Below are positions 16,188 to 45,400 of a DNA stretch of 64,000 bases, piece after piece. Positions within the stretch are counted from its first letter, which is position 1; each line of letters starts with the position of its first letter. Both the position numbers and the translations under genes were made by a program. A model generated the notes under the pieces. That model was not told the DNA's origin and did not search any database. It saw only the letters and a program-made list of their open reading frames with translations. Location: contig CM097885.1 in assembly GCA_044892525.1 (NCBI GenBank), forward strand, positions 21,516,001-21,580,000, written 5' to 3'. Source of the DNA: Schmidtea polychroa. Lineage: Eukaryota.

Positions 16188-16396
16188 CTCGTCGTCAAAA
16201 TTTTGTTTTTGCAAATTAACATTCAGTTGCGATTTTATTAAACTTTGATTTTAGTGATAATTATTTCAGTCCTTTTAATAAATCATCTTGTGTATTGCGT
16301 GCTTAACATCCGAAACTATGTTTATTTATAATATTGATTTTATTTTATAATTGAATGAATAGTATGCTGCAAGAATATAATCGTTGAATTTATCTA

Positions 16397-27200: not shown

Positions 27201-30200
27201 GACACGCAAGCAATGAAGAAATACCCAAGCTGTCTCGCATCAGATCGATCATGTTCAACCGGAATGTCAACTCTGGTATACCACGCAGATCAGAAAGTAT
27301 GTCGACTAATGTTACTCAAGACAGCAATATTCGAAGAAATCCAAGGGAAAGTGTACAGTGAACCAAAAGGAGAAGCAGAGAGACGAGCGATGGAAGAATT
27401 GAGAGCAAGGAAAGGATTCAGGGAAGACGTAATAACATCGAAATTGGAATCGGAAGTAACACCCACAGCGATAATCTCCAAAGACGATGGAATAGGAATG
27501 AGGTTCATAAAGAACAAAATGGTGAGTAAATGCGATGAGATGGTGATCAGCACCAATTATAAAGGGATCTACTTGTCGCGGAGAACCCTAGCAAATGCAG
27601 TCGGAAGACTAAGCGAAAAGGATGTCAAATTATATTTATACGCTAATAATAAGATGGATTTCTTATATCACAGAGGATTAACATCCACGGAAAAAGTCTA
27701 CCATGATCTGTTAAGAAACGATTGCCTGCTCAACAAAGAAATATTGAGAACAAAATTAGCAATGGCGATTACAAATCCAGATAACGCAATTCCACTACTA
27801 CCATTACAGGAAGGATATTTCGGACGAATCGTGGGCGAAGTGATGTACACCTACCAATGCAAAAAGATAATGGCAAGATTGCCGGAAAACCCTACAATAC
27901 CAAGGGATAAGTGTGCAAACGAACTCGAAATTATTCACGAAGGTAAACCCAGGTTTGTGCAAGCAGTCACTAGGATAATGAACCCGGTAGGGTTTCAGCC
28001 AAATCTGTTTAATTGCAGTAATGCATATGGACCAATGTATGAAAAAGAAGATGGACAATGGGTTCAATTTCCAAGTAAAACAATCGTAGTGACACCCAAG
28101 AAATTTGGATTGACGGAACTAACAACAGAATTAGAGTTCAAGCCGATAGACGTATCACAGAGTGGATTATATACACCAAAAGATCTTGAATCAGCAAGGG
28201 CCCACATGTTATTCCCAGCACACAGACAAGCGATCCTATCAAATATAGTGACTATTTCTGGAGGAAATAATTATGGGGGGAGCCCAAATTACGAGCTATT
28301 ATTATCACCAAGTCACTATCAACAAGCAACAGCAAACATGATGAAGGCTATGTGGGGTCGATTTTTGGTATTTGGCCAAATGATGGCAGGAATACTCGGA
28401 ATTATTCTGATAATACAAATAGTCAGAGTAATACTAACCCAGATGCTAGCATGTTTTGACATCTATAAGCGCGAGAGAAAAGTAAATTGGAAACTTGCAA
28501 TTGGATTCTTACCGTTCTTAGCGAAAACAATGGTGTTGCATGGACACTCAAAGGATATTCATCGAATAAAAAGATTGTTGAAAATACTAACGCAAATGAA
28601 AGGGACAGACGAAGAAGTCGGACGTAAGTTCAAAGTGATAATGAGATTAGAAGCAGAAAGAACTCAAGAGAAAGCAAAAAGAACCGGGAAGTGGAAAAAG
28701 TGGATGAACCTCAGACGAGACGATGATAGTGACAACGACAATGATGATTTCAACGACGATGATAATAACCAAGGAGGAGCAATGTTGATAAATAAAAATA
28801 CAGCCACTTGGGAAAACGAAAAAATGAAACCATGGGGATCACCGTATTCACAGACCCCATATTTACAAGCACCAACTAATGGACCAATGCGACGACCAGG
28901 AACAATGAGAGAACGGATAAGAATGGGAACCGGAAGATTACCCATACCGAACATTTATCCAACAGCTTATGAACCAAATTGGGCAGCAATGGATCCAACG
29001 ATGATCAAACAGGCTAAAAGTGTAGAACAAGAAGTGGAGACACGAACGATTGCGGTATTGCAGACACCAGCCGGACCATCATTAACCATCACGGTCGAAG
29101 TAAACGGAATAGAAATGGATGCAATGATCGATACCGGAGCAAATATTTCGGCAATAAATATGAATATGCTACCAGGCAGACTATGGCCATGCATTGAAGA
29201 GACAACCATGGATGTAATAACATGCAGCAAACAATCCATAGCGGTGGTAGGAAGAGTATGGTCAACGATTGAATATAAAGGGGTTAAAGTTACAACGTAC
29301 CTCGCAGTCATTAGACAGCTAAGCGTATCATGTATAATTGGAACAGATGTAATGCCGGAATTATTGAAAGAAATTGTGATTGATTTGAGTTCCATGAAAT
29401 TAAAAGATAAAACTGGACAGATATGCACAATGAGAACAGAAGTGAGATGCTCCGAAAAAATGATAATACCAGCACGTACCCAGACAATATGTTATGTCAA
29501 GGTCGATAACGAAGCCAAAGGAGATATGATATTTGAACCAAGTCAAAAATTCGAGAAGAGAAGGGAGCTGCCATTGGCAAGAGAAATTGTCAGTATAAAT
29601 GAGGATAACGAGATACCCATCAATATCACCAATTTTGATGAGGAAGATAAAGTAATCTACGAAAACGAGAGACTTGGAAAACTCACACCAATGATGAACA
29701 TTGAGCTACCGGAGATAAAAAGCGAGGGAGCAGACGAAAAAGAATTATGGACCATCGATAGCGAACTCCTAAATAAAGACGAAAAGGAACAACTCAGACA
29801 ACTACTGATTGAGTTTAAAGAAATTTTTGCGGCTTCAGATTTGGAATTGGGTACTAGCGATGTAACTCAACACATTATACCATTAACAGATGAGACACCC
29901 ATAACGTTAAGACCATATCGATTGGCTGAAGCACAAAAAACGGTAGCAGAGGAAGAAGTACAAAAGATGTTAGATGCTGGGGTAATAGAACCTAGTTGCT
30001 CACCATGGCAATTCCCAGTGGTAATGGTCAAAAAGAAAGATGGCACACAGAGATTTTGTATTGACTATCGGAGGTTGAACGCAGTAACAAAAAGAGATAC
30101 ATATCCACTGCCAGACATAAACGAAATGTTACAGATGTTGCATGGAGCAGCATACTTTACATCTTTAGATCTAAAGAGTGGATACTGGCAAATTAAAGTT

Positions 30201-33200
30201 AAAGAGGAAGATAGAGAAAAGACAGCCTTTACCATCGGAAAAGATTTATATCAGTTTAAAAAGATGCCATTTGGATTAACAAACGCACCTGCTTCGTTTC
30301 AGAGATGTATGAACTTTGTGACACACGGGATCAAACAATGTATGGTGTATATCGATGATCTGTTAATTTATTCAGGTACTTTCGAGCAACACTTAATCGA
30401 CATCAGAAACGTATTCATAAGACTGAAACAATGGAAGCTGAAATTGAAACCGTCAAAATGCGACTGGGCAAAGGAGAGAGTCACATTTTTAGGACACATT
30501 GTGTCGGCAAAAGGAAAAGAACCAGATCCGAGAAACGTTGAGAAAATAAAGAATTGTCCGATACCAAAAACCGTGACTCAGGTACAAGAATTTCTGGGAT
30601 TATGCGGATACTACCGCAAGTTTATCAAAAATTATGCAACTATCGCAAAACCAATTCAAGAACTAACAAAAAAAGATACTCCATTTTTGTGGGAAAGAGA
30701 ACAGCAAATAGCATTCGAATCGTTAAGAGATAAACTAATAGCCTCACCTATTCTAATACACCCAGATTTTAAAAAGCCTTTTCTACTAGCAACCGATGCC
30801 AGTGGATATGCATCAGGAGCTGTGCTAGGACAATGGGATGAGGAGAAACGAGAAAGAGTCATCGGATATTATAGCAAGACGTTCAAAAAGCACGAAAAGA
30901 ATTACTCGGTCACAGAAAGAGAAGCCTTAGCAATAATTCAGGCGATAAAACATTTCAAATATTTATTGTGGGGACACGAGATAATTATTACTACAGACCA
31001 TCAACCTCTAGTTTGGTTGGGCCAACACAAAGAAGCATCTAGCCGATTGATGAGATGGGCAATGCAGTTACAAGAATATTCCCCATACATCAAATTCAAG
31101 TCAGGAAAAGCAAACGCAAATGCAGACTGCATGTCGAGATTTGTATTTGAAGAACTCATGGATCATGACGTCAGACGAATATGCCTGATAATCGCGGAAG
31201 ATATCGATTTTACCAATCTAAAGAACGAACAAAAGGAAGACAATGAATTAAAACTAATAATTGAGTTCCTGGAAAAAAACGATATGAAAATATTCAACAA
31301 CGATGATCGACTAAAAGAACACATGGAGAAAAATCGTCACAGATATACGATCGAGAAAGGATGGCTATTGGTAATGGATGGCGACAAACGATTGATGTGT
31401 CTACCAGAAAGTAGACGGAAAGCAATTATGATTCAATACCACGATGGTAAATTGGGCGGACATATGTCAGCCAAGAAAACAGAAGCAAGGCTCAAACAGA
31501 AATATTACTGGCCAAATATGAGCGATGACGTGAAAGAATGGATAAAGAACTGCCTGATATGCGCAACCAGAAAAACAACGGGCAGTAAACTAAAGCCACC
31601 ATTGAAACCAATGCCGATACCGCCAGAACCGATGACAATGATTGCAATGGATGTAGTTGGACCACTACCAGAGACTAACAGTGGAAATGTGTATATATTG
31701 GTAATAACTGATTATCTGACTAAGTTCCCTGAAGCATTTGCGATGCCAGACCAGAAAGCACGAACGGTTGCAAGGATATTAGTGGAAGAGATCTGCTGCA
31801 GATATGGAACACCAAAACAAATCTTAACTGACCAAGGAACTAATTTCATGAGCGAGATAATAAATGAAGTGACAAATTATTTTAGAATTGCCAAATTGAG
31901 AACCTCACCATACCACCCGCAAACGAATGGTCAGACAGAAAGATTTAACGGCATACTAATAGACATGATGTCCAATTACGTGAGTAAACATCAAAAGGAC
32001 TGGGATGAATATATTAAGTTGTGTCTAATGGCTTATCGAATGTCAATACACTCAGCAACGAAAATGAGTCCGTTTAAACTCATGTATGGAAGGGAATGCA
32101 ACATGCCGATGGATCTCGAATACCAACCGCCAATCTCACAATATATGGAGATAGATGATTATGTGACAAAGTTCAAGGAGAGAATGCAAGAAATATGGAA
32201 AACCGCAGGGATGAACATCCGATTCAACCAAGAGAGTTATAAGGAATTACATGATAAAAAGAAGAACGTGCAAAACCATCAATTTAAAATCGGAGATTGG
32301 GTTATTATAGAAACACCCGAATTAATCCCAGGAACAGCAAAGAAATTACAACGTAATGGCAGAGGGCCATATGAAATCATCTATGTAAACGAGAACAACG
32401 CTAGAGTGAAGTTGGTTAACAATCCACTAATTAGACCCATTTATGTGAATACATGTCGATGCAAAGCAGTAGCGAAAACTGCCACTAAAGACCCAGAAAC
32501 AAGAAGGATAATCACGAGATCACAAACAAATGCCACAACGGAACCAGAAGTAAGCGGTAGATTAACTAGATCACAGACAAGACGAATATTCATGTTGAGA
32601 GGAGAAACAAGCAGCAGCGCCCATAAAGGAACTGAAGCAGAAAGCGAAGCTGACGCAATGGCAAGGAGCCAAGCAACATGGAATATGACAATAAAAATAG
32701 CACGAGAAATTGTACCAGAATGGGCCGATATAACCAATAAATACCAAGTATTGGGCAAACTAATGTTAGTAGCAGAAAGATATGCGAAAGGACGAAGATA
32801 TGCCGAAGGATTACAAATACCGACTCAAATATATGAACTAATCCGGAGATTACCAATCATGTTCCTAACAAGTGATTTGAGTAATAACTGGCCAATCCAT
32901 CATGCAGTGAAAGCAGGACAAGAAAAACGAGCTTTAGAGATTATACGAATAATGGAAAACTGCAAACAATCAACAAACGTCAAAAACAGTAAAGGAAAAA
33001 CTCCACTGATGAAAGCCATAGCAATAGGCGCGTCAAGAGATGTACTCAGAGAATTATTAAGAACGGGATCCACGCTGAAAGAAAAAGACAACAAACAACG
33101 AACCGTATTACGTTATGCCGTCAGGTCAAAAAGACCTAGTATAGTGAACTTTATCACAGGAAATGCAACAACCGAAGAAGCCGAGGTGTTGGGACAGAGC

Positions 33201-35348
33201 ATTGAACCAATTCTGGAAGCCATCAGAGGAAACTTAGACAGAACCGCAGCAATATTAATCAAATGGAAACAAAACGAATTAAGAGCGGAAGTAATTGATA
33301 TAAATCAATTCCAAAACAACGAAAATATCGTACTAAGAAGCGCCATATACTCAAGACCACCAATGCCAAAAACCATTAAAGCAATATTACAGAGAAATAG
33401 AACAGAATTGACAGGTAATTGGTGGGAATGCACAAAAACACATGCGATGAAAAAGCAACTAGAAATACTAGTGTGGGAATGGCACCGGAAACAACGGAAA
33501 TATCAAGGAACCAAAGAAGAACGAGAAAGTATCCACAACGACAAAAAAGAGATAATTAAAAAATACGAGGAGATGATCAAAGCAGCAAATGTCGAGGACG
33601 ACATTTTCAGGAAAACCCCGGGTGAGAGGAATGACGACGACGACGACGACGAAAGGATGGGGGATAACGATAACAACCCAGAGGAAAACGACAGAGAACA
33701 GAATCCGGAAGGCGGAGAAACAACGAGTGATGATGAGGAATTGGAAGAAGACGAAGAAGACCAATGTCGAGGTGAAGATCAAGGATTCGACAAAACGGAG
33801 AACAAAAAACGAAAGTCCCCACTACATAGCATAGTGTGTCGAAATCAAATCCAGCCAATCCTACTACAAAGAATATTTATAATATTAACATCCATCTGTT
33901 TAACAGAAACAAAAAATATAAGAATCGTAAGAGAAGCTTCCCAAGAAGGTGAAGCATTTATGATAAAAGTCAGTGATTACGACGGAAATGCCGTCGGAAT
34001 ATGTGTGCAACTAATGGAAGGAACAGGAGTAAGTTGTGATTTCAGATCGATAACAAAAGGAAAGATTTTTAGCAGCCAAAAAAGAGATCCCAGGCTATGT
34101 GGAGATTATGACATCTGTAGAGACATATCAACAGAGGAAATGGAGCTAGAAAGAGCCAACGAAACCGGAGTACATTTTCAACTCAACATTTTGGAAGAAG
34201 GTATCGAAATAGAAGATAAAGGGAGTCGATCAATTACACATGTATGCATCAGAGAAGACAGAGACATATGCATAATAACTGATATGACACAAGACCACAA
34301 ATTCTTCTGGGGAGAGGTCAAACCAAATACCCCTACTGTGGTATGCGCAGGAACACAAGGGATAGTAGTATGTAAAGGAACAAGAACTGCACCAAGAAAA
34401 GACAAGCCAAAGAGTATGGCAATGAAACAAGATCCATTGAGGGGGATAGCAACCAAGAAGCCAAACAAATCAGTTAGTACAAAAACAACAACAGAGCAAA
34501 ATCAAACCGAATTAATAACAACAACAACATGGATTAACGAAGTAATTAAAGACGAAAGACGGGAAGTGCAGATAACTATTAACCTCAACAAGAAAGGTGA
34601 AGAGGTAATTACAGTCAAAAACCAGGAAGGAGAACCAATCATAAGGATATGTGTAATGGATAAGACGGGAATAATCGACTGTACAACAACACCGATAGAC
34701 AAAGGTACAGACGTTAAAATGGAGACAGGGAAACGGAAAGAACGATACCAAGTATGTATCCTTAAGAAAGGAAGAGGAACCAGCGTATGTCAACCAATAA
34801 CTCGACAAAAACCCCAATTAATAAACATACCATGGATACCCCGAGATCAAGAAGGGGGAGAGAAACGGGAAAATCACAGTCACCTAACAGAAAAAGAGAA
34901 GGAACGATTACATCAAGCATTCAAGAAAATCAAAGCACCAGAAACAAATACCACAGGTAGTACAATATTAACGACAGAAAAAACAAATAATGGAACAACG
35001 ATCATCACAAAGATGATATGGATAACTAGCGCGATAGTAAGCACGATAATAGCGTTAGCAATGATTCAGTGGATAAGAACCACCAAAAGATGTAAACAAA
35101 AACCGAGAAACCAAAGAAAATGGCCCAAAGTGGAAAAATTTGAATACGGTATTCCAACAGAGAATCTGAATCTAGAAGAATACGAGGTGGTAGAGGATCC
35201 CGGATCCAGCGGATTGTGGATGTCGGAACTACCAAGAATACCCACACCGAACGAATGGACACACGAAGTCGATATATACCGAATAACGGACGAAAGATAT
35301 GGGGGAATGCGCACGCTGCATTCCGGCCCCATGGCGACACTGGTATAA
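21282..35348 (+). CDS. Giant single-frame Gag-accessory-Env-Pol-accessory polyprotein (~4,688 aa from the first ATG)
   Basis: Uninterrupted frame 21060-35348; first ATG at 21282; domains are listed separately below. Confidence 0.95.
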   Translation: MTDGIPNVTGLTDPPETSNVHVNIGEFREKFRGEPFDGNINQLETFIKEFEVYITICHWPDIVVRERIPLYLKGSAQDVYLEAKCDATKLRTWKEIKEFLIKTFGTEKEGNRKMLDFLHRKQKYNESNALYACELRRLAREAFDSNQPVPEDKIIAVFVDGMKREDIRATLGCRAPETLEEALKIANKCETYLTPIQVAAMTAAPAAPAATATTTNNQVNNANPVMNQFIPGSQQLFKTPQTRNQNNGGNIQNFTNNFRNNDINNRTCNICQRPGHWSNECYKARMCQKCGRRGHTENVCRGPMMSMSRGGTRTCYNCNQPGHMARECTMRTKPNQPGSNNPVQNTQINLMQEIEQLKDMILRIPTNNQQQRINMMQSTEEIRNQPSKQQQDQQRVEWQRLQNEEAREIQERWKQREANPGRINMMRLTNKEESHTAEQCVNNDGSEPIINKEIKTTKENEIDPRTELSSEEKIQLIKEFTKEEKERRQKRDESKDEPKSNEIVTKNRIQRVLLQKIEDRIKNENPTLTEEQIKEKVKEHWFRKNEWFEKKEPHTKAKINMLRQMRSDQTDQEDEKSEVSSLGGELFQSSEENNEPKTPPNSETPQSSEESENDDMKSMIEKDEEEIFEEILDTVTEIERNESYINELTYRKCLKLITQVYQCEGGIITAAWKDLATKYKEKLKEAGPDQYQVSIQHPEIQIQTIELKGTNTDELYNWVQEKMGTSHKNKQLYVDGYKVKIGIHLVDAMIWPNETNILTLEKTRDDDSVAEMFKKIQQVFNNEVEPELEKIERKIMKENQIILVKQAIDQTRKYINRLRERWPQLMKQFVKDVRDTEIMRFEDKRATELISKYGEYERTKCEHETIKIKVKLPNEEKQIIEVNPDCQVDELVQIIDQEIIQKARENSEDGMIEDVIIMYNRHMLERGDRTVIYELGIWENGAVINIIAMDEPSGGHKNATKTEQQIKRFQWGMRAKMDRIIDIYNHWLKDDKLKLAAFNDEDCKLIPWKKVWIESEARWDWEQQKLEPNWIDNIPEEIAAAWVREKPIDTYQDILPQEFQNELPSGEDEEIREPVRLAPFTWKIENWMEKIKSAKEEKITRLVSPPFYSGLGEYKMKLRIYPNGDGIGKGSYVSAFFVICKGNYDDKVPWPFNRKVTIAIEPLKDSLNRHKETLKPDPRSACYQRPTTSENIASGTPKLIRLSYIENEQSKFVKNNAIQIRVEVETEQEMNQRLNIPENQPRICMMRRRVSDSGHLPIDADADEEEAATLLEAQKCKELMEILQNGAKNRRRAVVELAKWIAESCKRIQNLRKIVKAIEEYRRVYVWYPEQFGEIIRKWKQQEWAENSPEKYQLKIFMPDCEPMEKEFYTTAKVREVKKRIPYELPFHLQHEGRSLDDDIEIGVTPLQGEIVNRLTVSKIAGRELRRREIKQKSSTQQPGSLDTPEVPNAVSEVTIETTGEDEILDELQEIVEAGEIMRASQSGDLFIDEGELTTDDLDGFVCAQRQPVETTEAETDLDNVERDANKDVTTTDEWSNWRVDPGATTSKDTTYNPPKRKETGTAMDRRTRGRPKTDKAEIEPKSKVQAQMEQVKTKMDKLSALVKQVKVKTSVREQGTRWINDLLANMLALANPDVKRVMRKDNIPTEAKQLWAVLKPIIMKIMDNKIRLTLKDPVELRLIVEHLLSRSEDQNRFLVGLAYLVYNVIGQYKKRMPKYNATGYEFTVTEIIKRSIEPYILEQGGWRSFIESTGKKDQTEMMQAKLRDLLTEFEGTININDPRASRKGMNAIITTILIWMMCIKGTESFAVYDCDNIKIHEKYSLKDTEDCKAANPRKLQTVMASVSYNVYQEADFIKTMVQECTVTRKIFAHHCGSSSHSTIIEPGLESTVILLSREECEEGFRSGRIHLRQGIEIAAEPGKIKTTRVYTAGRITKGDGTCETGTYTLNGQLVSGVVVIESYEAKLEKYQGYFDPDTQAMKKYPSCLASDRSCSTGMSTLVYHADQKVCRLMLLKTAIFEEIQGKVYSEPKGEAERRAMEELRARKGFREDVITSKLESEVTPTAIISKDDGIGMRFIKNKMVSKCDEMVISTNYKGIYLSRRTLANAVGRLSEKDVKLYLYANNKMDFLYHRGLTSTEKVYHDLLRNDCLLNKEILRTKLAMAITNPDNAIPLLPLQEGYFGRIVGEVMYTYQCKKIMARLPENPTIPRDKCANELEIIHEGKPRFVQAVTRIMNPVGFQPNLFNCSNAYGPMYEKEDGQWVQFPSKTIVVTPKKFGLTELTTELEFKPIDVSQSGLYTPKDLESARAHMLFPAHRQAILSNIVTISGGNNYGGSPNYELLLSPSHYQQATANMMKAMWGRFLVFGQMMAGILGIILIIQIVRVILTQMLACFDIYKRERKVNWKLAIGFLPFLAKTMVLHGHSKDIHRIKRLLKILTQMKGTDEEVGRKFKVIMRLEAERTQEKAKRTGKWKKWMNLRRDDDSDNDNDDFNDDDNNQGGAMLINKNTATWENEKMKPWGSPYSQTPYLQAPTNGPMRRPGTMRERIRMGTGRLPIPNIYPTAYEPNWAAMDPTMIKQAKSVEQEVETRTIAVLQTPAGPSLTITVEVNGIEMDAMIDTGANISAINMNMLPGRLWPCIEETTMDVITCSKQSIAVVGRVWSTIEYKGVKVTTYLAVIRQLSVSCIIGTDVMPELLKEIVIDLSSMKLKDKTGQICTMRTEVRCSEKMIIPARTQTICYVKVDNEAKGDMIFEPSQKFEKRRELPLAREIVSINEDNEIPINITNFDEEDKVIYENERLGKLTPMMNIELPEIKSEGADEKELWTIDSELLNKDEKEQLRQLLIEFKEIFAASDLELGTSDVTQHIIPLTDETPITLRPYRLAEAQKTVAEEEVQKMLDAGVIEPSCSPWQFPVVMVKKKDGTQRFCIDYRRLNAVTKRDTYPLPDINEMLQMLHGAAYFTSLDLKSGYWQIKVKEEDREKTAFTIGKDLYQFKKMPFGLTNAPASFQRCMNFVTHGIKQCMVYIDDLLIYSGTFEQHLIDIRNVFIRLKQWKLKLKPSKCDWAKERVTFLGHIVSAKGKEPDPRNVEKIKNCPIPKTVTQVQEFLGLCGYYRKFIKNYATIAKPIQELTKKDTPFLWEREQQIAFESLRDKLIASPILIHPDFKKPFLLATDASGYASGAVLGQWDEEKRERVIGYYSKTFKKHEKNYSVTEREALAIIQAIKHFKYLLWGHEIIITTDHQPLVWLGQHKEASSRLMRWAMQLQEYSPYIKFKSGKANANADCMSRFVFEELMDHDVRRICLIIAEDIDFTNLKNEQKEDNELKLIIEFLEKNDMKIFNNDDRLKEHMEKNRHRYTIEKGWLLVMDGDKRLMCLPESRRKAIMIQYHDGKLGGHMSAKKTEARLKQKYYWPNMSDDVKEWIKNCLICATRKTTGSKLKPPLKPMPIPPEPMTMIAMDVVGPLPETNSGNVYILVITDYLTKFPEAFAMPDQKARTVARILVEEICCRYGTPKQILTDQGTNFMSEIINEVTNYFRIAKLRTSPYHPQTNGQTERFNGILIDMMSNYVSKHQKDWDEYIKLCLMAYRMSIHSATKMSPFKLMYGRECNMPMDLEYQPPISQYMEIDDYVTKFKERMQEIWKTAGMNIRFNQESYKELHDKKKNVQNHQFKIGDWVIIETPELIPGTAKKLQRNGRGPYEIIYVNENNARVKLVNNPLIRPIYVNTCRCKAVAKTATKDPETRRIITRSQTNATTEPEVSGRLTRSQTRRIFMLRGETSSSAHKGTEAESEADAMARSQATWNMTIKIAREIVPEWADITNKYQVLGKLMLVAERYAKGRRYAEGLQIPTQIYELIRRLPIMFLTSDLSNNWPIHHAVKAGQEKRALEIIRIMENCKQSTNVKNSKGKTPLMKAIAIGASRDVLRELLRTGSTLKEKDNKQRTVLRYAVRSKRPSIVNFITGNATTEEAEVLGQSIEPILEAIRGNLDRTAAILIKWKQNELRAEVIDINQFQNNENIVLRSAIYSRPPMPKTIKAILQRNRTELTGNWWECTKTHAMKKQLEILVWEWHRKQRKYQGTKEERESIHNDKKEIIKKYEEMIKAANVEDDIFRKTPGERNDDDDDDERMGDNDNNPEENDREQNPEGGETTSDDEELEEDEEDQCRGEDQGFDKTENKKRKSPLHSIVCRNQIQPILLQRIFIILTSICLTETKNIRIVREASQEGEAFMIKVSDYDGNAVGICVQLMEGTGVSCDFRSITKGKIFSSQKRDPRLCGDYDICRDISTEEMELERANETGVHFQLNILEEGIEIEDKGSRSITHVCIREDRDICIITDMTQDHKFFWGEVKPNTPTVVCAGTQGIVVCKGTRTAPRKDKPKSMAMKQDPLRGIATKKPNKSVSTKTTTEQNQTELITTTTWINEVIKDERREVQITINLNKKGEEVITVKNQEGEPIIRICVMDKTGIIDCTTTPIDKGTDVKMETGKRKERYQVCILKKGRGTSVCQPITRQKPQLINIPWIPRDQEGGEKRENHSHLTEKEKERLHQAFKKIKAPETNTTGSTILTTEKTNNGTTIITKMIWITSAIVSTIIALAMIQWIRTTKRCKQKPRNQRKWPKVEKFEYGIPTENLNLEEYEVVEDPGSSGLWMSELPRIPTPNEWTHEVDIYRITDERYGGMRTLHSGPMATLV
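21384..22265 (+). other. gag: Gag capsid-like domain and three CCHC zinc knuckles
   Basis: PFDGN..F..EF, YLKGSA, TW..IKE, Q...ES...Y, FVDGM, P.TLEEA; knuckles CNICQRPGHWSNEC, CQKCGRRGHTENVC and CYNCNQPGHMAREC. Confidence 0.92.
24519..24956 (+). other. TRAF-type MATH domain inside the polyprotein
   Basis: FTWKIENW...SPPFYSG..YKMKLRIYPNGDG.GKGSYVSAFFVICKG.YD..VPWPF.RKVT. Confidence 0.92.
26637..28540 (+). other. Envelope-like glycoprotein (chuvirus G / class III fusion-like) with internal signal peptide and TM anchor
   Basis: Signal-like MNAIITTILIWMMCIKGTES, then AVYDC..YSL....C..VYQ..V.EC.V...HCG..SHS and a Cys-rich ectodomain, then W.RFLVFGQMMAGILGIILIIQIV. Confidence 0.75.
29080..32470 (+). 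other. pol: Pol: aspartic protease, RT, RNase H, integrase
   Basis: IDTGA (29130) and IIGTD; LDLKSGYWQ, MPFGL and YIDD (30348); TDAS, EREALA, TDH and NADCMSR; HHCC zinc finger (H..GH..CLIC), MDVVGP, TDQG and GQTERFN. All catalytic residues are present. Confidence 0.98.
32883..33270 (+). other. Ankyrin repeats (about 3-4) downstream of integrase
   Basis: WPIHHAVKAG, NSKGKTPLMKAIAIG...LLRTG, DNKQRTVLRYAV, PILEAIRGN. Confidence 0.85.
33858..35348 (+). other. C-terminal type I membrane protein module
   Basis: Signal-like RIFIILTSICLTET, paired-Cys beta-rich repeats, Thr-rich stalk, TM MIWITSAIVSTIIALAMIQWI followed by a basic stop-transfer and a tail. Confidence 0.7.
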
Positions 35349-35496: not shown

Positions 35497-35952
35497 ATGA
35501 ACCAGAGAAACGAAGAGCAAGAACACCCAAATGGGATACCACATATTGTTGAAGTAAGAGAACAGCCGCTTATGAATGTACATCCAGTAGACATGATGGA
35601 AATGAACGTGCCAAACCAGCCGAGTCAGCCAACAGGATCCATGTGGAGGGCACAGTGTGAATTAATGACCCAATTGACAAATCAGACTCAAGAGCACTGG
35701 GTACGAAACCAAACGGCGTTGATAGAGAGTATTAATAGAAATGCAATATATATTACAAAAATAGAGGAACAACACCAAATAATCGCGCAACTAGAGTATA
35801 ATAACAATCAGTTAATAAGCCAAATCAGATGGCAAGCGGAAGAAATTAGAAGGTTGCATGAAAATCGACAACATGATGATATTACCAGTTTAGTCGAGTG
35901 GATGACCGGGTTACCAGGAACAGGGGAACCGGACTCGACGGTAGATGTGTAG
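35497..35952 (+). CDS. Accessory 151-aa coiled-coil protein, unknown function
   Basis: Intact ORF with the element's codon bias and cassette-type flanking motifs. Confidence 0.7.
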   Translation: MNQRNEEQEHPNGIPHIVEVREQPLMNVHPVDMMEMNVPNQPSQPTGSMWRAQCELMTQLTNQTQEHWVRNQTALIESINRNAIYITKIEEQHQIIAQLEYNNNQLISQIRWQAEEIRRLHENRQHDDITSLVEWMTGLPGTGEPDSTVDV

Positions 35953-36041: not shown

Positions 36042-37466
36042 ATGCAAAACAAAGCAGAGGAAAACCGGAGAGAAGCAGAGGAACAAAAGATTAACTATGA
36101 GTTGATGAGAAAATACCAAGCCGAGCCGGACGAGTTCGAAGAGAGATTATTATGTGCCGATACAGCATGTAGAAGATTATTAATTGGAGCAAGTCAAACT
36201 CGATGCGGGTGTAGATTGTGCCGAGGGTGTGATATAAGATTAGCCAGACTAAAGCGAGAAACTTGTCCAGGATGTGGAGAAGCATTTAAGTTGGTTCCCA
36301 CTGGTACGATACCGGATAGAGCAATGAACCGAGAAATCAGAGAAGTGAAAATAAGATGCACCCAAAGGTCATGCGAATGGACAGGCCGAGTAAAGGAGTT
36401 AAGAGCCCATACAGACGTATGCGAATATCTAGAATCGGAATGCGAAGCATGCACGGTAAAGTTTTTACGAAAAGAGAAAACCAAACATAAAGGGGAATGC
36501 AAAGCGCGAACGGAAAAATGCGAATTTTGCGGAGAAACTGCTAATTGGAGAGAAATCGAAATGGAACATCGAAACGCAGTAGAAAGACGGATTTGCGACG
36601 AATATACAGGGAAATGCCCAAACGAGTGTGGAGAAATTAACAACGTCAGATTAAATGAACATTGGGAGATATGCACGAGAAAAGCAATAAAATGCCCAAT
36701 GGTGACATTCGACTGTAGAGCACAATTACCAGCAGAAGAAATGAAGAAGCATGTGGAGGAGAATACATTCGAGCACATGCAAAAGATGATGAGAGCAATA
36801 GAGTTAACAGCAAGAGCAATTGAAGACGTCAAAGACGAACTCAAATCACATAAAATCATGATAAAAGAAATGCTGAGCTCACAGGAAAGCTTCGAAAATA
36901 CGAGAGAAGCCGTAACACAAAGGATGTTGAAATTAGACGACAAATTAGTCGAAGTAACTAAATTACAAACCAAATGGACTACAAAGGAACTGACAACAGA
37001 GGAACTACCAATACTACCATACATGTGGAAAATCCAAGGAATAACGGAAATAATGGAGCAAGCAAAGCAAGGAATCCAGACAACGATAGTGAGCAAACCA
37101 TTCTACGCCAAGAAACATGGATACAAGATGAAATTGAGATGGTTTCCAAATGGTGAAGGAAAGTTTAAAGATCGGTGCATGTCCATATATATGCAAATTT
37201 GTAAAGGAGATTTTGACGACCTAATAGCATGGCCATTCCGACATCGATTAAAAATATCTCTCTTAGGAGCAAAAAAGACACATATAATGTGTTTTCGAGC
37301 ATCCAGTCCAGCAGGGAATAAACCGATTACAGAGGTTAATCCTGCGGTAGGAGTAGCAGAGTTTATGCAGCTATACCAATTTAACGAAGGGTCCTACATA
37401 GAAAAGGACACTATATTCTTCCTAATCGAACTAGATGAGGAAGGACCAACAATAGAAATACGATAG
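36042..37466 (+). CDS. Full-length TRAF-like protein (RING, zinc fingers, coiled coil, MATH), intronless
   Basis: C..C..CGCRLC..C..CPGC RING; C...CEWTG....L..H...C TRAF zinc fingers; YMWKI...SKPFY...GYKMKLRWFPNGEG...KGDFDDLIAWPF. Confidence 0.95.
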   Translation: MQNKAEENRREAEEQKINYELMRKYQAEPDEFEERLLCADTACRRLLIGASQTRCGCRLCRGCDIRLARLKRETCPGCGEAFKLVPTGTIPDRAMNREIREVKIRCTQRSCEWTGRVKELRAHTDVCEYLESECEACTVKFLRKEKTKHKGECKARTEKCEFCGETANWREIEMEHRNAVERRICDEYTGKCPNECGEINNVRLNEHWEICTRKAIKCPMVTFDCRAQLPAEEMKKHVEENTFEHMQKMMRAIELTARAIEDVKDELKSHKIMIKEMLSSQESFENTREAVTQRMLKLDDKLVEVTKLQTKWTTKELTTEELPILPYMWKIQGITEIMEQAKQGIQTTIVSKPFYAKKHGYKMKLRWFPNGEGKFKDRCMSIYMQICKGDFDDLIAWPFRHRLKISLLGAKKTHIMCFRASSPAGNKPITEVNPAVGVAEFMQLYQFNEGSYIEKDTIFFLIELDEEGPTIEIR

Positions 37467-37606
37467 ACGGATAGAAGGGAACTGTAAATATTTTGTAAAA
37501 ACGATGTAAAGTAAATATAAAGTTATTGTATACAGTAAAGTAACGTGCCAAAACCATAAAAATTAGAAAAAGAAAATGTAAAAAGAAATGATGAAATTTA
37601 TTATAG

Positions 37607-38785
37607 ATGATTAATCAAGAGAGACCGAATATCCGAAAGAAAACGATCACAATGAGAGAGGAAGAGGACAATATGTCACCTAGAGAAAGAGTGAAGGATG
37701 CGGAAGTCAGCAAAACAAAACCAAGTAGTTACGCATATTATCGGAGAATGGGAAACGATTATAATTGGGTACACGAAAATTTGAAACTGGGAAATAATGA
37801 ACAATTCAGATGTGAGAACCAGAGATATCTGTCATTTGAACATCAGACCATTTTTACCAAGGAACAAAGCCGAGCGCTAGCACGCGACGGATTTTTCTTC
37901 TCCGGAAAACCAGAGATACCCGATCAAGTAACATGTCGTTTCTGTAAAGGGAAATTAGCAGAATGGAAAAAAGGAGAACACCCAAAGGAGGAACATCGTA
38001 GACGATTCCCAACTTGTCTATTCGTACTGGGATTTGATGTACACAACAAACCGGAAATCAAATACGAAGCCTTGGAGAAATTGAAAACTGAAGACGAAAA
38101 AGGAGGGAAAATGAGCATCGCGATAACCAGAATCGTTGATGAGTATGTTCCAACTTGTGAAGGGGAATTCCTCACGCAAATAGCAGATAATAGAATGAAA
38201 ACGTTCGGAGATGATACGAGAGGACCTGAATTAGCAATAAGAGGGTTCTACCTAACAGAAAATCAAATACTAAAGTGTGAAAGATGCGAAAGCCAACAGA
38301 GATTACCGGAAGAAGGCATACCAGAAATTAGACATCAAGCATGGTGCCTATATCACAACGAACAAGAAACCGAATATCCGGAAGTACTAGTAACAGAGGA
38401 AGAGGTTGACGAAGTGGTAGACAAACCCAACATGTGCAGAGCGTTGAAAGCAGCCGGAATAGGCACGACAAGGGCAAAGAACATGATTAGAGAGAAACTA
38501 CAGAAAAATGTACATATACCAACAACAACGTACGATATGATCAGAGCGATAACCCAGTATAGAGAAAAACCTGAAACAAAAATAAAAGAAGAATCAATGG
38601 TCAAAACAGCTATCTTACGAGATATCAAATGTACTATGTGTTGGGAGAGGAGTGTAGAAGTTATTCATATGCCATGCGGACATTTGATCGCATGTGCCAC
38701 ATGTAGTAGAAAAGTAAAGGAATGTCCGATGTGCAGACAGAGGATTGCGCAGCGAATCAAAGGATTCCGCTACGCCGATCAATAA
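37607..38785 (+). CDS. Inhibitor of apoptosis (BIR, degenerate BIR, C-terminal RING), intronless
   Basis: RYLSF...LARDGFFF...DQVTCRFC...W..GEHP..EH....PTC; second RMKTF..LAIRGFY..C..C..H...C; CTMC...PCGHLIACATC...CPMCR. Confidence 0.95.
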   Translation: MINQERPNIRKKTITMREEEDNMSPRERVKDAEVSKTKPSSYAYYRRMGNDYNWVHENLKLGNNEQFRCENQRYLSFEHQTIFTKEQSRALARDGFFFSGKPEIPDQVTCRFCKGKLAEWKKGEHPKEEHRRRFPTCLFVLGFDVHNKPEIKYEALEKLKTEDEKGGKMSIAITRIVDEYVPTCEGEFLTQIADNRMKTFGDDTRGPELAIRGFYLTENQILKCERCESQQRLPEEGIPEIRHQAWCLYHNEQETEYPEVLVTEEEVDEVVDKPNMCRALKAAGIGTTRAKNMIREKLQKNVHIPTTTYDMIRAITQYREKPETKIKEESMVKTAILRDIKCTMCWERSVEVIHMPCGHLIACATCSRKVKECPMCRQRIAQRIKGFRYADQ

Positions 38786-38867: not shown

Positions 38868-40466
38868 ATGAATAAAGAATCACAAACCTATGTGGAAACC
38901 GAGATGCAACAACTCGAACAGTACAAATCCATCATACAAACATACGAAGCAGAAAGAGTAAAGAGAGAAATAGAAATGTACAAAACCATGTATGAGAAAA
39001 AGCAACAAGAATTAGAAGCGGAGAAGGCGGAAGCACTAGCAACAAAGGAGGAGTGGATGAAACAGGTAGAGGAATTAACCGAGGATGTGAGAAATACCTC
39101 AACATACCAAGAATTGGAGGAAGAGCTCTCGAATTTACGAACTCAGCGGATTATGGAGATAGTTGGGTTATGCGGAGAGATAATAATGCAGAAGGCACAA
39201 ATTAGGGAAGCAAAGGAGCAATACGAGGAGGAACAGCGTAAAACGGAACGAATAAAACTACAAGCGCAACAATGGAAACTAAAGTACGAAACCCTCCAGA
39301 CAAGGCAGAATGATAGTCACGAACATCAAATACGGAATTACAAGGCCGAACTAGAAGAAGTAAAGGGCAAATGCGCAATGATGAAAGAAAAATGGGAAAG
39401 ATGCAAAAAGACCCTAAACGAAGTCAGAGGGCAAGGGAGGAGAACACCGCATAGAGAACCAATTGTTAGAGATAACGTATTAGAGCGAATTAACACACAA
39501 ATAAAGATACAAGCCCAGAAATGGAAGTATAAATACCGAGGAAGTCAAACTCAAGTGCTATATTGGAAAATCAGTAGCAAGGAACAACTGCGATTACGAA
39601 AAGCAGACCAAGAATTTTACGAAACAAGAGCTGCACAGCGAGAAGAAGAGGAAGTAGAGTGGAGAAAACGACAGCAGAAAACTGAGGAAACCGAAAAGTG
39701 TCTCAAGCATCAAGCCCGAAAATGGAAAAAGAATTGGAAAGAGACCAAAGAGGAGTTAAGACAGTTACCAATAAAACTGATGGAAAGAGACGAATTTAAA
39801 ATATGGGAAACGATAGAAAACCAAAAAGATGAGATCAGCCGATTGAGTAGAGAACATAGAATCAAGACGCGGATCAGCGACGGTAGACAGAGAATCATAA
39901 AGAAACAGACTCGAGAAATAAGAAGGTATGAATTCCAGGAAAAGAGATGGGAACAACAATTGACAGACCAAGATCGACAGATCCGACAATTACAAACTGA
40001 AGTGGAAGAAGCCAATCAAGAGATGAACGGATATAAAGGTATGTACACCCAAAGGGATGTGAATTGGAAGCACCAGATTGAGCTTAATGCGAAATATAGA
40101 GAGGAGTGCGACAAGACAATTCAACAAACCAAACAGGAAACCGAGATAATAAAACGATGCTTCGAAGAAAATGAAGCAAATTTGAGAGCGGAAATTGAGA
40201 AACTAAAAACGCTCGAAAGAACCCAACGATTGGAAGAGGAATTAAACGAAATGATAGAAAACGAAGGTAGATTAACGTTTTTATTGGATGAGGAAATAAA
40301 CATCTCAACGGAACTACGAGAGGAAATAGATCGGTTAAGGAGACAACCACCAATATTATTAATGCCACTCTACCCGTTCCCGTTGCAAGTGCCACAGCCT
40401 GCCGAAGTCACCACAGATGAAGGCTTCGATGAAAATAACGAACAAAATAACGCAACATGGATTTAG
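38868..40466 (+). CDS. Accessory 532-aa long coiled-coil protein
   Basis: E/K/Q/R heptads throughout, a repeated QA.KWK motif and a Pro-rich C-terminus. Confidence 0.8.
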   Translation: MNKESQTYVETEMQQLEQYKSIIQTYEAERVKREIEMYKTMYEKKQQELEAEKAEALATKEEWMKQVEELTEDVRNTSTYQELEEELSNLRTQRIMEIVGLCGEIIMQKAQIREAKEQYEEEQRKTERIKLQAQQWKLKYETLQTRQNDSHEHQIRNYKAELEEVKGKCAMMKEKWERCKKTLNEVRGQGRRTPHREPIVRDNVLERINTQIKIQAQKWKYKYRGSQTQVLYWKISSKEQLRLRKADQEFYETRAAQREEEEVEWRKRQQKTEETEKCLKHQARKWKKNWKETKEELRQLPIKLMERDEFKIWETIENQKDEISRLSREHRIKTRISDGRQRIIKKQTREIRRYEFQEKRWEQQLTDQDRQIRQLQTEVEEANQEMNGYKGMYTQRDVNWKHQIELNAKYREECDKTIQQTKQETEIIKRCFEENEANLRAEIEKLKTLERTQRLEEELNEMIENEGRLTFLLDEEINISTELREEIDRLRRQPPILLMPLYPFPLQVPQPAEVTTDEGFDENNEQNNATWI

Positions 40467-40498
40467 TCGAAGGGAGATGTTGCCTGTAAATAAGAATG

Positions 40499-40544
<46 letters not shown>
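40499..40544 (+). repeat. 46-nt poly(A) tract between accessory ORFs
   Basis: Pure A run starting 33 nt after the stop at 40466. Confidence 0.9.
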
Positions 40545-40546
<2 letters not shown>

Positions 40547-40629
40547 AAAACCAAATAAAAATTACAAAACCAAAAAATTCAGAATAAAAAGAAGACAAAA
40601 GGAAATATGATATGTATATTTTTGTAGAT

Positions 40630-41397
40630 ATGAATTATTTAAAAGAAAGAGAATCAACGAGTAACGAAGGAAAGTCAAACGACCAACCTGAACAAAACCA
40701 GGATATGATACCAATCAAACAAGAACCGATGAAATATTATAGCAATAAATGGAGAGTCAGCAAGAAGTTGTTCAAATTAAAGATTGCAAATCAAAATGTA
40801 GAGATTACGAGATTGAGGCAGCATATTGTTCAATCAAGACGATTAATAAACACTGTCAAACAAGAAATTTTGAGGGAAATAAAGGAATCGAAACGAAAAG
40901 AGACAGAAAATAAAAACCTGAGACAAGAGATAGTAGAGTTGAGAGCTCAGGCAGTAATCGAAGATTATTGGAAATCAGAAACAAGGAAGTTGAAAAAGAT
41001 TGTGAATATCGACCAAGTCTATATCGAGCAGTTAGAAGCACAATATGCTTATGCAAAAACAAGAGTGCGAGAAAGTAAAAAAGTCGAGAAGAGAAATGTA
41101 AAACTCAAGGAAGAGATCAAGGAACAAAGAGAGGAAACAGAAAAACAATGGAAGTTGAAAGAAAATTACCGGAGAATCTTAAATCAAAAACGACGAAGCA
41201 TGCAAGCATTGCAGACGGCAATAACCATCAAGCAGAGAAAATGGAAAAGTAAAGAGAAGCAATTACAAGAAATACCAGAATTAAAGAGACAGTTGATAGC
41301 AACGCAACTCGAAGTAATAAGAATGAACGAGTTGAGCAAAAGACGAGCACCTGAACCTCCCGTAAAATTAAGGGATGAGGTCGGTGGCTCCCAATAA
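40630..41397 (+). CDS. Accessory coiled-coil protein (probable start 40630), probable paralogue of 38868-40466
   Basis: ORF 40612-41397; the second ATG follows ttttgtag; KW..IANQNVEITRL resembles KW..IENQKDEISRL. Confidence 0.75.
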   Translation: MNYLKERESTSNEGKSNDQPEQNQDMIPIKQEPMKYYSNKWRVSKKLFKLKIANQNVEITRLRQHIVQSRRLINTVKQEILREIKESKRKETENKNLRQEIVELRAQAVIEDYWKSETRKLKKIVNIDQVYIEQLEAQYAYAKTRVRESKKVEKRNVKLKEEIKEQREETEKQWKLKENYRRILNQKRRSMQALQTAITIKQRKWKSKEKQLQEIPELKRQLIATQLEVIRMNELSKRRAPEPPVKLRDEVGGSQ

Positions 41398-41473
41398 ATG
41401 AGACAAAATAACCGTGTAAATAAATTGTAAATAAAGCCAAGTAATTATTATTAACATATATGTATATGTAAAG

Positions 41474-42460
41474 ATGAGAAGCCTAATCGTGATGATGATT
41501 ATAATGACAATGCCAAAAATCCTGCAAGCAGAAGAATCAATGATCAGATGCCAGAAAGAATACCCATATCGCAGAGAAGATAGTACATGTAGTAGCTTTA
41601 AATCGATCTGCGAAAAACCCAATGAGGAATGCGAACAAATCAAGTTACAATGTTCGCAATGTCCACAAACAACTGAAAGTTCGACGGAAGTGCAAATGGC
41701 TCAGACAATAAAAACAATGTTAGAACAAGAAATGAAAGTTATCAGAACCCAGATAGCAACATTAGCCAAACAATGTCAAAGTCAGAAATCAAAGAGAGAA
41801 TCCCAAACAGATCCAGCCGCAATGAGAATGATGGTAATAATATTAGAGGAAATAAAACAACAGGTAACAGCAACCGCCTATGGACGTTCAAGCAATTGCG
41901 AAACAGTAGTAAAATCTTTGGAGGAAATGAAAGGAAAAATAACTTCCATCATCAAAGAGGAACCCAGCATTAAAAATGAGGTAACGAAAACCTTGAAAGA
42001 AATGACAAGGGAAATCCTAACTACCATAAACAAAAACCCAACGAACTCCGAGAAGATGATTAAAACCCTTGAGGCAATAAAGAAAGTTGTCACCTCAGAA
42101 GAAAACAAATTCAATAAGCCCGAAAAATCAGAAACGGCGGATACAACCCAATTAAAAGAAATTATGAACAAACCCAAAGTAATAGAACCGAGAGAGTCTG
42201 AATCCCTCACAATATTGATCCTATTAGCGGCGAGCCTAATGATAAACATCACCGTACTGAGCCTGATTGCACTCAAACCCAATTCCAGTAAAGAAAGAAA
42301 CAAAACCCTCAAACTAAAGGAACAATCAAGAAGTATTCGTATCCCAATGGAAGAACAGCTAGTCCAAACAACGAACCAACCAAGCTACTTCAAATCTTCC
42401 CCAAACATTGAAACCAGAGCCGTCATCGAGACGAGATCCCGAACAACCGAATTTTATTAA
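41474..42460 (+). CDS. Accessory type I membrane protein (signal peptide, 6-Cys head, helical stalk, TM)
   Basis: N-terminal MRSLIVMMIIMTMPKILQA; Cys cluster; three K[ST]L.E[MI] helical repeats; TM LTILILLAASLMINITVLSLIAL. Confidence 0.8.
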   Translation: MRSLIVMMIIMTMPKILQAEESMIRCQKEYPYRREDSTCSSFKSICEKPNEECEQIKLQCSQCPQTTESSTEVQMAQTIKTMLEQEMKVIRTQIATLAKQCQSQKSKRESQTDPAAMRMMVIILEEIKQQVTATAYGRSSNCETVVKSLEEMKGKITSIIKEEPSIKNEVTKTLKEMTREILTTINKNPTNSEKMIKTLEAIKKVVTSEENKFNKPEKSETADTTQLKEIMNKPKVIEPRESESLTILILLAASLMINITVLSLIALKPNSSKERNKTLKLKEQSRSIRIPMEEQLVQTTNQPSYFKSSPNIETRAVIETRSRTTEFY

Positions 42461-45400
42461 TGTGACATCACGACAGTATAAACATTTCATGACATTATAA
42501 AACATTATCAAACAATCATGATTTCAAAGACTGAGACTGATTATGACTAATAACATTGATTCTTGAGCATGATAATTTTATTTTTGTGTGGACCGACCTC
42601 GGTCGTTCTTTTTCTTCATCTTTCAACCCATCCGTAGAATGTAGTATAATAGTAGCCTTTTTATGTATGTGGGTATTGAGGTCACGACCCTGTAGCTCGT
42701 AGACCCAATTTGCATGTAGGCACTTGTAATATAGTGCAAGTATTCTGAAAAATAATTTTCTTCATCTTGTGATTTAAATTGCGGGTCGCAATTTTATGGG
42801 CCCCCGAGTGTTTTATGTTGGGCTAGAACTGACTTCTAGACCCAAACTTGAATTGTGACTGAAAGGTGCAGGTACACAACATGCAAAAGCAAGACGTTTA
42901 GCTAAATATTAAAATTACATCAAATAAACAATATTAACTAAAGGAGAAAGCAACAAAAACATAAACAAAGAAATTAAACAAAATTATACAAAAGCAAGAA
43001 GTGATGCAAAAATCTAACTCAAAAATAACCAAATAAACACAGAGTTACAAAAAACAGACTCGAATAACTTAAAAGACGATAAAAACAGTAAAACATTCCA
43101 GAAAAACCCAGAACATTCTATAAAAATGGCGATGACCATCACAAAAGTCATCTAGAACAACAAAAGTTAAGGAAAATAAATAAATTAGTATTAAAAATAA
43201 TAAATCTTTAAAAGAAATTCACAAAACATCAGTTAAAATAAAAATTAAATTAAAAATAAAATAGAATGTTCTGGAACCGTTCCAAATCCATCATGGACGG
43301 CAAATTAACGAAAAATAATTAAAAAATAAAAATATAAAAATAAAAACAAAAATTATGGCACAAAAATTGTCATTAAAAATAGCAAAATCGCTAAATAGAA
43401 AATTCTGGAATAAAAAGAATTCGAGTTTGTTTTAATGCATCAATACATACACGTGTACTAAATAGGTATATATACTGACACGTTTCAGTCACAATCAATC
43501 ACTTTTATGCCAAATTTTTGTGACGAAATTTCCAAAATCGATAGTAAGCATTGATCTTTATTTGTATATTAATTGTTTAATTATATAGATGGTATTTTAA
43601 ATTTATTTTTGCTTAAAATTTTTTGCGATGTATGAGTGATCAACGGCGTACTGGTATTCCTGCGTCGTTGTTCAGTCCTGCATCCAATTTATTAAAATCG
43701 TTATTAACAGGACATGCAGACACGCATTATCATTATTATAGTGATATTTATTATATGATTTCTTTTTGTTCGGGTCAGCCGGAGGTCGAACTACTTCATG
43801 GTCCTGCCATGGAGTTAGGTCGAGGAAACCCTCCGCCTGACTCTTTGTATTTATTCAAGGTCAACCGTAAATGGTTGACTTAGCACACAACACTAAGGTT
43901 TGTAGAAGTGGTCACAGTGGGGCCATGGAAGCAATATTCTTCCCGACTTTCGTTTAATACACATGAAAAATCCACATTCAAAATCATAAACAACGACTCC
44001 ACACTAAGGTCCTAAATTGAGTAGAGCTCATACCTAAACTTACACAATTCTGCAAGCACATTAATGTAGTTGGTTGATCAATAATAATATTTTGGTACAC
44101 TTGGACATATGCCGAATTAGGTTTGGTAATAGGAGCCCATGGTAATTGGAATAATAGAAATGGTAAAATTCTTCGGCCTATGTCTAAGTAGAGCTTAAAT
44201 TTGGATAGACCTGTGAATAAATCACCGACTTAATGAACCCAACGTAAGGGAAAAAGTTATAAATTTAAAAGAATCCCGAATCTAAATTCTCACTGTAACA
44301 TATTCCTAAAGGTATAAATAATTGATTATAACTTTTATAAATAACTATAATAGCTTGGAGATAATTATATTGATAAATTATAGACCTAAAACCGTAAATT
44401 ACTGAATATAAAACTACCAACTATAAATTAAAAACTTAAATTTCTAAATTGTAGACTTTAAAAGTGTAAAGTATAATCATAAAGTCTAAAATACCGAATA
44501 TAGTATTATAAGTTATAAACTATACAACTATGGATCAAAAATCTAAACTGTAGATCATAAAAGGGCAAATCATAACGATGAAGTCTGAAATGTAAGAGCG
44601 TAAAATGTGGAATATAAATTGTCAGCAAAAACTATATAATCATAAAGTAAAAATCTAAATTTCTAAATAGTAGACTATAATTGTATAAATCATAACCATT
44701 AAGTCGAAAACATAACGTCGTAAAATATTGAACAAAAAATTTAAACCATATAATCATAAATCAAGAATCCAAATTTCTAAATGGTAGACCATGAAACTAT
44801 AAATCTGAAAATAGAAAATTAGGAAGTAAAAAATATAAAATGGTAAAATGTTAAATAAACAATTTATAAATTATAAAGTGTATGATGAGAACTTCTAAAG
44901 TATGAATTTATAAACTGTAAGATAAAAAATTGAAAATCGTAGACGAAAACCTGTAAAGTGCAAAATGTAACCTTCGAACTCATAAAATATGAATCCCTAA
45001 ATTGTGAAAGCCAAAATACGAATGGTAAAATATAAAGTTATATTATCACTATTATTATTAGTGTTGCCATTATCATTATTACTATTATTATTGCTATTAT
45101 TGTTCTTATTGCTATCCTTATTGTTCTCATTATTATTATTATCATTATTGTTATTATGACTATTACTATTATTATTATTACCACTACGATCATTTGTTAT
45201 CCTCGTTATCACCATTTTTACGGTTATGATCATAATTAGTATTACTTACTAGGAAAGCAAAAAATCAATTATTGATTTTTTCCCCATATCTAGATTTGGA
45301 GTCAATTCTTTTGCCCAATAAAAACGTTCCTAACTGAAAATCTATATTTAGCAACACCCCCCCCCCCAGAGAAACCTTAAGGAAAAATTCAAGACGGGGC

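Follow-up and report, generated by a model that had tools for sequence, protein, structure and literature searches.

The window analysed here, 64,000 nucleotides of a Schmidtea polychroa contig (CM097885.1 of assembly GCA_044892525.1, positions 21,516,001 to 21,580,000), contains a complete, env-bearing long terminal repeat (LTR) element of 35,061 bp at window positions 12510-47570. Its 5' LTR (12510..17264, plus strand, 4755 bp with TG...CA ends) and 3' LTR (42816..47570, plus strand) differ by 1 mismatch, and a 4-bp target duplication, ATAG, lies on both sides; the element is young and recently mobile. Six accessory open reading frames (ORFs) follow its polyprotein on the 3' side. The second encodes a TRAF of 474 aa (36042..37466) and the third an inhibitor of apoptosis (IAP) of 392 aa (37607..38785), both uninterrupted on the plus strand and 140 nt apart. 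We favor, with a probability of about 0.65, the reading that a young 35-kb Burro1-type element carries both as intact accessory genes under selection, which it likely acquired separately and which likely act in parallel, and not as one complex in the style of TRAF2 and cIAP.

The initial annotation of this locus described a complete TRAF immediately followed by an IAP with two BIRs and a RING. The TRAF is indeed complete. Pfam recovered zf-TRAF and MATH, the RING, zinc fingers and MATH matched human TRAF structures, and all parts expected of the family are present: a CGC-type RING (36153-36275), zinc fingers, a coiled coil and a C-terminal MATH (37017-37436). The coiled coil gave no match to TRAF1/2 up to E 10, and coiled coils align poorly; a search of a large protein database returned 0 TRAF matches, and 1 match for the TRAF profile. 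The RING ligand pattern is C38-C43-C55-G-C57-C60-C63-C75-C78, and the Cys at the position of the usual His, which had been remarked upon, was confirmed. As 9 of the 12 frames inspected for host TRAFs have the same Cys (no complete RING is contained in the remaining 3), it is not peculiar to the element. Both genes had been called A-rich like the element, and the frequency of A at third codon positions agrees with this (TRAF 0.49, IAP 0.44, polyprotein 0.46), unlike that in 5 host TRAFs (A 0.31-0.38, T 0.30-0.44). They had also been called intronless; the frames are uninterrupted, but host TRAF coding regions are single open frames too, and the observation therefore carries information for the IAP alone. 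The peptide-binding strands of the accessory MATH have diverged. A second MATH, found within the polyprotein by Pfam and sequence comparison (24519..24953, plus strand), is closer to host TRAFs, being 41-43% identical to two of them (L031 and L032) and 32% identical to the accessory TRAF.

The IAP adjoins the TRAF as described, with the corrections that its second BIR is reduced and that a UBA-like domain had been missed. The marks of the family, a CCHC BIR (one or more) and a RING at the C-terminus, are present, and Pfam reported one BIR and one RING only. All on the plus strand, an intact BIR (37796..38044, aa 64-146) with the type II groove residues G115, L117, W120, E124 and E129 is followed by a reduced BIR (38174..38356, aa 190-250) that keeps its zinc ligands in a shortened groove, a UBA-like three-helix domain (38393..38569, aa 263-321) and a C-terminal C3HC4 RING of the IAP type (38624..38767). 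Judged from the alignments, the second BIR is real but reduced: C224, C227, H243 and C247 are the sole invariant columns in a 43-sequence IAP alignment, and residues 195-387 align continuously with BIR3-UBA-RING of mammalian XIAP (E 8e-14). The UBA-like domain has no Pfam match and was recognized from the XIAP alignment together with a weak fold match of model residues 263-321 to the XIAP UBA (Z 4.1, root-mean-square deviation [rmsd] 3.4, 56 aligned). The fold was taken from an alignment-based model with a predicted local distance difference test (pLDDT) score of 72, confident over the four domains, and a single-sequence fold (pLDDT 35) was discarded. No CARD was matched in the IAP, in which only about 18 residues lie between the UBA-like helices and the RING. 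The best viral fold matches were baculovirus IAP-3 proteins. The large protein database search gave 2 IAP matches, and leads from the ESM Atlas were all below 0.9 and all BIR families. A 169-aa protein (P0006) shows 38% identity across the reduced BIR, the UBA-like region and the RING; against the genome (G000) it found nothing above 40% in 150 scored places, and the IAP cargo is therefore old.

The two genes had been proposed to form a TRAF2-cIAP-type pair that meets through BIR1. According to PMC6360406, the E319/E219 position is acidic in type II BIRs and Lys or Arg in a type I BIR1, and cIAP2 needs L30, M33, E47 and R48 to bind TRAF2. A type I BIR1 would have Lys at the E319 position and Leu at the W323 position, and the element has E129 and R133. 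E129 is the type II glutamate, present in 90% of second BIRs and 26% of first BIRs among 76 three-BIR homologues. In an alignment to a cIAP-type BIR1 (P0073), the four contact residues correspond to N71, Y74, S88 and R89 in 21/21 copies; the intact BIR thus keeps one of the four, R89 at the R48 position. Its best single-domain match in the PDB was XIAP BIR2 (50.6 bits). Profile scores across BIR classes were 79.9, 73.3, 71.7, 69.9 and 63.0, with the first BIR of two-BIR IAPs (79.9) ahead of the first BIR of three-BIR IAPs (69.9) by a modest margin.

Two further young Burro-type elements provided a comparison. Element B (G000:C2:35889511-35919611; loci L151-L154 and L135) has LTRs that are 100% identical, and those of element C (G000:C1:262069-290807; L150, L131 and L132) are 99.8% identical. 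Both have the gene order of the family to which the element in the window belongs (family A) and an intact CGC-RING TRAF, with no IAP after it. A search for BIR domains gave no match anywhere in either element (best E 0.09). In 25/25 B loci that were fetched, the TRAF was directly followed by the next ORF with no IAP between them. There are at least 92 copies of the B TRAF, and the ratio of nonsynonymous to synonymous substitution rates (dN/dS) for this gene was 0.20 over 21 distinct copies.

Exact 24-mer searches of the genome gave 253 hits for the TRAF and 267 for the IAP, with 0 for reversed controls, and at least 253 and 267 copies, respectively, are present. Intactness was assessed in 40 TRAF places, the first by coordinate once the copy in the window had been left out. 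Both frames were intact in 23 copies, the TRAF only in 6, the IAP only in 5 and neither in 6, and among copies at least 98% identical both were intact in 17/18. Selection was assessed in the window plus 20 diverged copies taken from the BIR search (93-97% identical), with dN/dS as a counting estimate that assumes a transition ratio of 4 and is not tree-based; for the IAP it covers codons 52-392, codons 1-51 being left out because of an alignment artefact. For variants shared by at least 2 of the 21 copies, dN/dS was 0.22 for the TRAF and 0.17 for the IAP (p ~1e-20 vs neutrality). Single-copy variants gave 0.54 and 0.45, respectively, and the value for the reverse transcriptase-integrase (RT-IN) region was 0.01. 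By domain, dN/dS was 0.29 for the intact BIR, 0.02 for the reduced BIR, 0.09 for the UBA-like domain and 0.03 for the RING of the IAP, and 0.22 for the RING and 0.33 for the MATH of the TRAF. A larger set of 52 distinct copies gave 0.31 (TRAF) and 0.27 (IAP). Both genes, which the initial annotation had called captured, are under purifying selection and are kept functional by it. Amino-acid variants were clustered at TRAF residues 402-425 (37245-37316), each in 8-10 of the 21 copies, a pattern that suggests two MATH haplotypes near the peptide-binding strands.

The TRAF and the IAP are cargo of host origin and likely were acquired separately. The phylogeny with host genes that had been called for placed the TRAFs of elements A, B and C in one clade (95/96 support), with a composition warning on the tree, and gave no supported clade for the IAP. 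Intron-containing host IAP exons are present at G000:C2:155.08-155.11 Mb, and the idea that the host is without a BIR-RING IAP was rejected on their account. The loci concerned (C2:155085104-155113866; L192, L197 and L199) contain exons from a pair of host genes that encode IAP-type RINGs and lie on opposite strands, with one BIR split by an intron. This GT-AG intron interrupts the host BIR where the element IAP runs on continuously, and a 3-residue loop insertion is common to the host and element BIRs and found in 8/362 others. Together these features fit the capture of a spliced mRNA from that host IAP lineage, which is a candidate source of the element gene.

Under the reading that we favor, the IAP would work like XIAP or baculovirus IAP-3. 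Its intact BIR would dock onto the N-terminus that processed caspases or Smac-like antagonists expose, and its RING would ubiquitinate the proteins so bound, such that a cell expressing the element survives. The initial annotation had the gene pair keeping host cells alive. A survival role has been reported for the IAP: PMC13465017 cites Lee et al. (Dev Cell 2026, doi 10.1016/j.devcel.2026.03.001) for protection of stem cells from caspase-mediated apoptosis by the Burro1 BIR-RING region and for a contribution of the Burro1 B-IAP, a BIR and RING gene like that of our element, to regeneration. The TRAF may be an older cargo that would trimerize and intervene, as adaptor or ligase, in the stress and innate-immune signalling of the host (TAK1-JNK/p38), and its receptor specificity is probably altered, because the peptide-binding strands of its MATH have diverged from those of the host. 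In planarians, TRAF knock-down leads to more cell death (PMC7586133), and xiap and traf2-1 have opposite effects in infection-driven degeneration (PMC4993586).

Several observations weigh against separate action of the two genes and are best considered with the module that the initial annotation proposed, in which the first BIR of the IAP would dock it onto the TRAF trimer, giving the element a TRAF2-cIAP-like ligase of its own. The IAP region adjoins the TRAF in 40/40 family A copies (one truncated), and both genes are selected. The R48 equivalent is retained, cIAP2 BIR1 is the next-best distinct PDB domain for the intact BIR (43.5 bits), BIR classes are only modestly separated by profile scores, and BIR folds tie in the structure search. 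The reduced BIR is under strong constraint with no known partner. In addition, the MATH-only tree leaves the grouping of the A, B and C TRAFs unresolved, and the link of the element IAP to the host IAP, its nearest neighbor by tree path, is weak. The generality of the comparison with B and C is tempered by BIR motifs noted in Burro-2, -3 and -4 in PMC6431247. A diverged invertebrate TRAF-IAP pair could also bind through other residues. Against the module stand the type II groove, the change of 3/4 contact residues and the missing CARD, as well as a TRAF that is kept and selected without a BIR in B and intact without a BIR in C. We consider it unlikely; on the sequence evidence the TRAF2-cIAP claim fails three tests, is not required by the comparative data and is not supported. 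Rather improbable, too, is a version in which Burro is a virus-like immune-evasion operon: a UGUANAUA-plus-AG code would cut one transcript into mRNAs, the TRAF with its fast-changing MATH groove would be a decoy of the expanded host TRAFs, and in family A it would recruit the IAP by way of the nearly invariant reduced BIR, in a contact unlike the vertebrate one.

Enzyme and substrate would be another relation between the two, with the IAP ubiquitinating its own or host TRAFs and so damping JNK-driven death. DIAP1 acts in this way on DTRAF1 in flies, as cited in PMC3315533; the two-BIR and RING layout resembles that of insect IAPs, and a fold search placed DIAP1 BIR1 in second position, nearly level with other BIRs (Z 12.0, rmsd 2.8, 88 aligned). 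Selection for a full TRAF merely to have it degraded is hard to explain, however, and the TRAF persists without the IAP in B and C, which makes this relation quite improbable. The constant position of the TRAF in all three elements examined, the envelope-like gene and the divergence of the MATH groove from host TRAFs would also suit a TRAF that serves the life cycle of the element (for example, as an envelope-tail adaptor or in particle traffic) and not host survival. TRAFs are, however, signalling adaptors. The cell death that follows planarian TRAF knock-down argues in the same direction, and an excess of nonsynonymous shared variants in the MATH (nonsynonymous:synonymous 30:31, vs 30:65 in the rest of the TRAF; p=0.03) fits a host-facing surface; we regard a life-cycle role as very improbable. 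That both genes are functionless passengers is hardly credible. At least one frame is broken in 17/40 copies, but the selection test contradicts this idea, with shared-variant dN/dS far below the single-copy values of about 0.5, and both the reduced BIR and the C-terminus are preserved in the homologue at 38% identity.

The spacers between the accessory genes contain a recurrent motif. Beside the TRAF it is TGTAAATA (37483..37490, plus strand), 17 nt after the stop codon, and it recurs at 35365, 35970, 35982, 40485, 41415 and 41426, with a variant at 38812. In the form TGTANATA it is present in all six short 3' spacers, with 8 matches in 680 nt vs 0.23 expected. This count was reached in 0/5000 single-base shuffles, and there was 1 match on the opposite strand and 3 in a 20,982-nt ORF set. 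The first motif lies 17-19 nt past the upstream stop in five spacers; the spacer after the IAP has a near match at 18 nt and an exact motif at 27 nt. The three motifs checked did not vary across 20-21 of the 21 copies. In 5/8 ORFs, among them the TRAF and the IAP, a YAG ends 0-3 nt 5' of the ATG (background 0.13). Across 35349-41473, therefore, UGUANAUA follows upstream stops and YAG precedes most ATGs, an arrangement kept in the sister elements, where the motif occurs 10 times in 537 nt (B) and 7 times in 626 nt (C), one spacer in each being without it. The UGUANAUA/YAG spacers may act as a signal in splicing, in trans-splicing, in 3' processing or in control by Pumilio; each 3' gene might be expressed from its own processed RNA through the motif and the AG just before its ATG. 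The motif is identical to the Pumilio element and similar to a forkhead site. UGUA as an ordinary planarian poly(A) element is disfavored, as none is reported 5' of poly(A) signals in PMC5068929. Contigs from four sequencing runs span the TRAF and IAP ORFs with no splice joint to either one; as the runs are not recorded as RNA, they were given no weight as a sign of expression. Some 45 A in a row (~40500-40545) lie right after a spacer motif, between the fourth and fifth accessory ORFs.

The polyprotein (21282..35348, plus strand, 4688 aa) comprises Gag with three CCHC knuckles, the MATH, a weak Bcl-2-like stretch, a mononegavirus-type fusion protein, protease (PR), RT, RNase H (RH), IN and ankyrin. 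Its MATH is missing from B and C. Between the MATH and env, the Bcl-2-like segment gave a weak BH2-region match to Bcl-xL (E 0.47), and neither a Bcl-2-like nor a ubiquitin-like segment had a Pfam match above cut-off. Accessory ORF 1 (35497..35952, plus strand, 151 aa) is without a Pfam match, is under selection (dN/dS 0.11) and keeps its position in B and C. The three ORFs beyond the IAP (38868..42460, plus strand; 532, 261 and 328 aa) match no Pfam family over cut-off; B and C contain ORFs related in sequence to the 532-aa and 261-aa ones, and an ORF placed similarly to the 328-aa one. An upstream accessory ORF (17990..18472, plus strand, 160 aa) encodes a coiled region and an IAP-type RING without a BIR; it is separate from the IAP, lies 5' of gag and is present in all three elements. 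Each LTR (15822-16867; 46128-47173) contains two short ORFs of 121 and 111 aa with no Pfam family over cut-off. A primer-binding-like site at 17273-17290, 8 nt 3' of the 5' LTR, resembles the tRNA-Pro type.

In layout, this anatomy matches the published description of Burro1/GYPSM1. Burro1/GYPSM1 is a giant gypsy-like planarian LTR element (Jurka 2007 and Grohme 2018, as described in PMC6431247), for which MATH_TRAF_C, BIR, BCL2-like, ankyrin and an in-frame env are listed and interference with host apoptosis and ubiquitination is proposed. Like the element here, it exceeds 30 kb and has long, multi-kb LTRs, a BIR-bearing gene among accessory ORFs, and one giant ORF with three CCHC knuckles, MATH, in-frame env, PR-RT-RH-IN and ankyrin; its Bcl-2-like stretch has a weak candidate counterpart here. 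Its polyprotein has 4873 aa, compared with 4688 aa here from the first ATG (4791 stop to stop). The relevant section of PMC6431247 mentions MATH_TRAF_C and BIR motifs but no complete gene with RING, zinc finger, coiled coil and MATH next to an IAP. BURRO1 RNA has been detected by in situ hybridization, and BURRO1 RNAi gave no rescue of the smedwi-2 phenotype (PMC8532177).

It had also been suggested that element copies inflate apparent host TRAF and IAP families. A BIR search of the genome gave 309 candidates, and nearly all of the 150 scored were element copies by frame length and place. Two BIR candidates that were translated proved to be host genes, which we take to resemble BIRC6 and survivin. 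A lone BIR with a 242-codon frame (G000:C2:1878927-1879103; L190) does not belong to family A. The MATH search gave 1551 candidates; 27 of the top 30 were translated and all were host-type, many from clusters on C2, and the lower 100 rows were mostly element copies. The loci L031-L060, mostly on C2, are host TRAFs with single-frame coding regions and CGC RINGs, along with clusters of many MATH exons. As the top MATH matches are host-type, the host TRAF/MATH expansion reported in PMC6109357 is real here, and element copies add hundreds to genome-level TRAF and BIR counts on top of it. The suggestion holds for the counts, which element copies swamp, and the host has a genuine expansion as well. 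A search of the genome for NF-kB/Rel domains gave no match, and its control was also silent.

The element, its cargo motifs and the survival role of the IAP are already known. Our literature search turned up no publication dealing with the Burro TRAF gene, although Grohme 2018 and Lee et al. 2026, with their supplements, may already describe the ORF, and it did not find a full-length TRAF across three elements or the conserved UGUANAUA spacer motif. If the IAP already aids planarian stem-cell survival, the adjoining TRAF is an obvious second lever, and sister elements with the TRAF and without the IAP offer a natural comparison. Genome-level TRAF/IAP counts are contaminated by hundreds of intact element copies, which can also confound RNAi or the mapping of reads through cross-reaction. 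The conserved spacer motif suggests, in testable form, how a retroelement could express the six genes 3' of its polyprotein.

Compared with mammalian TRAF2-cIAP1/2 (PDB 3M0A), the element likewise has a TRAF with RING, zinc fingers, coiled coil and MATH and an IAP with BIR, UBA-like domain and RING. It differs from that system in having neither a type I BIR1 nor a CARD, and in sharing 1/4 contact residues; its TRAF groups with the host CGC-RING set, and orthology to TRAF2 is not established. With the BIR2-BIR3-UBA-RING part of XIAP and with baculovirus IAP-3 it shares a type II BIR and a C-terminal RING, and like IAP-3 its IAP is carried by a virus-like element. Unlike in these proteins, the second BIR is reduced, and the carrier is an integrating retroelement present in hundreds of copies.

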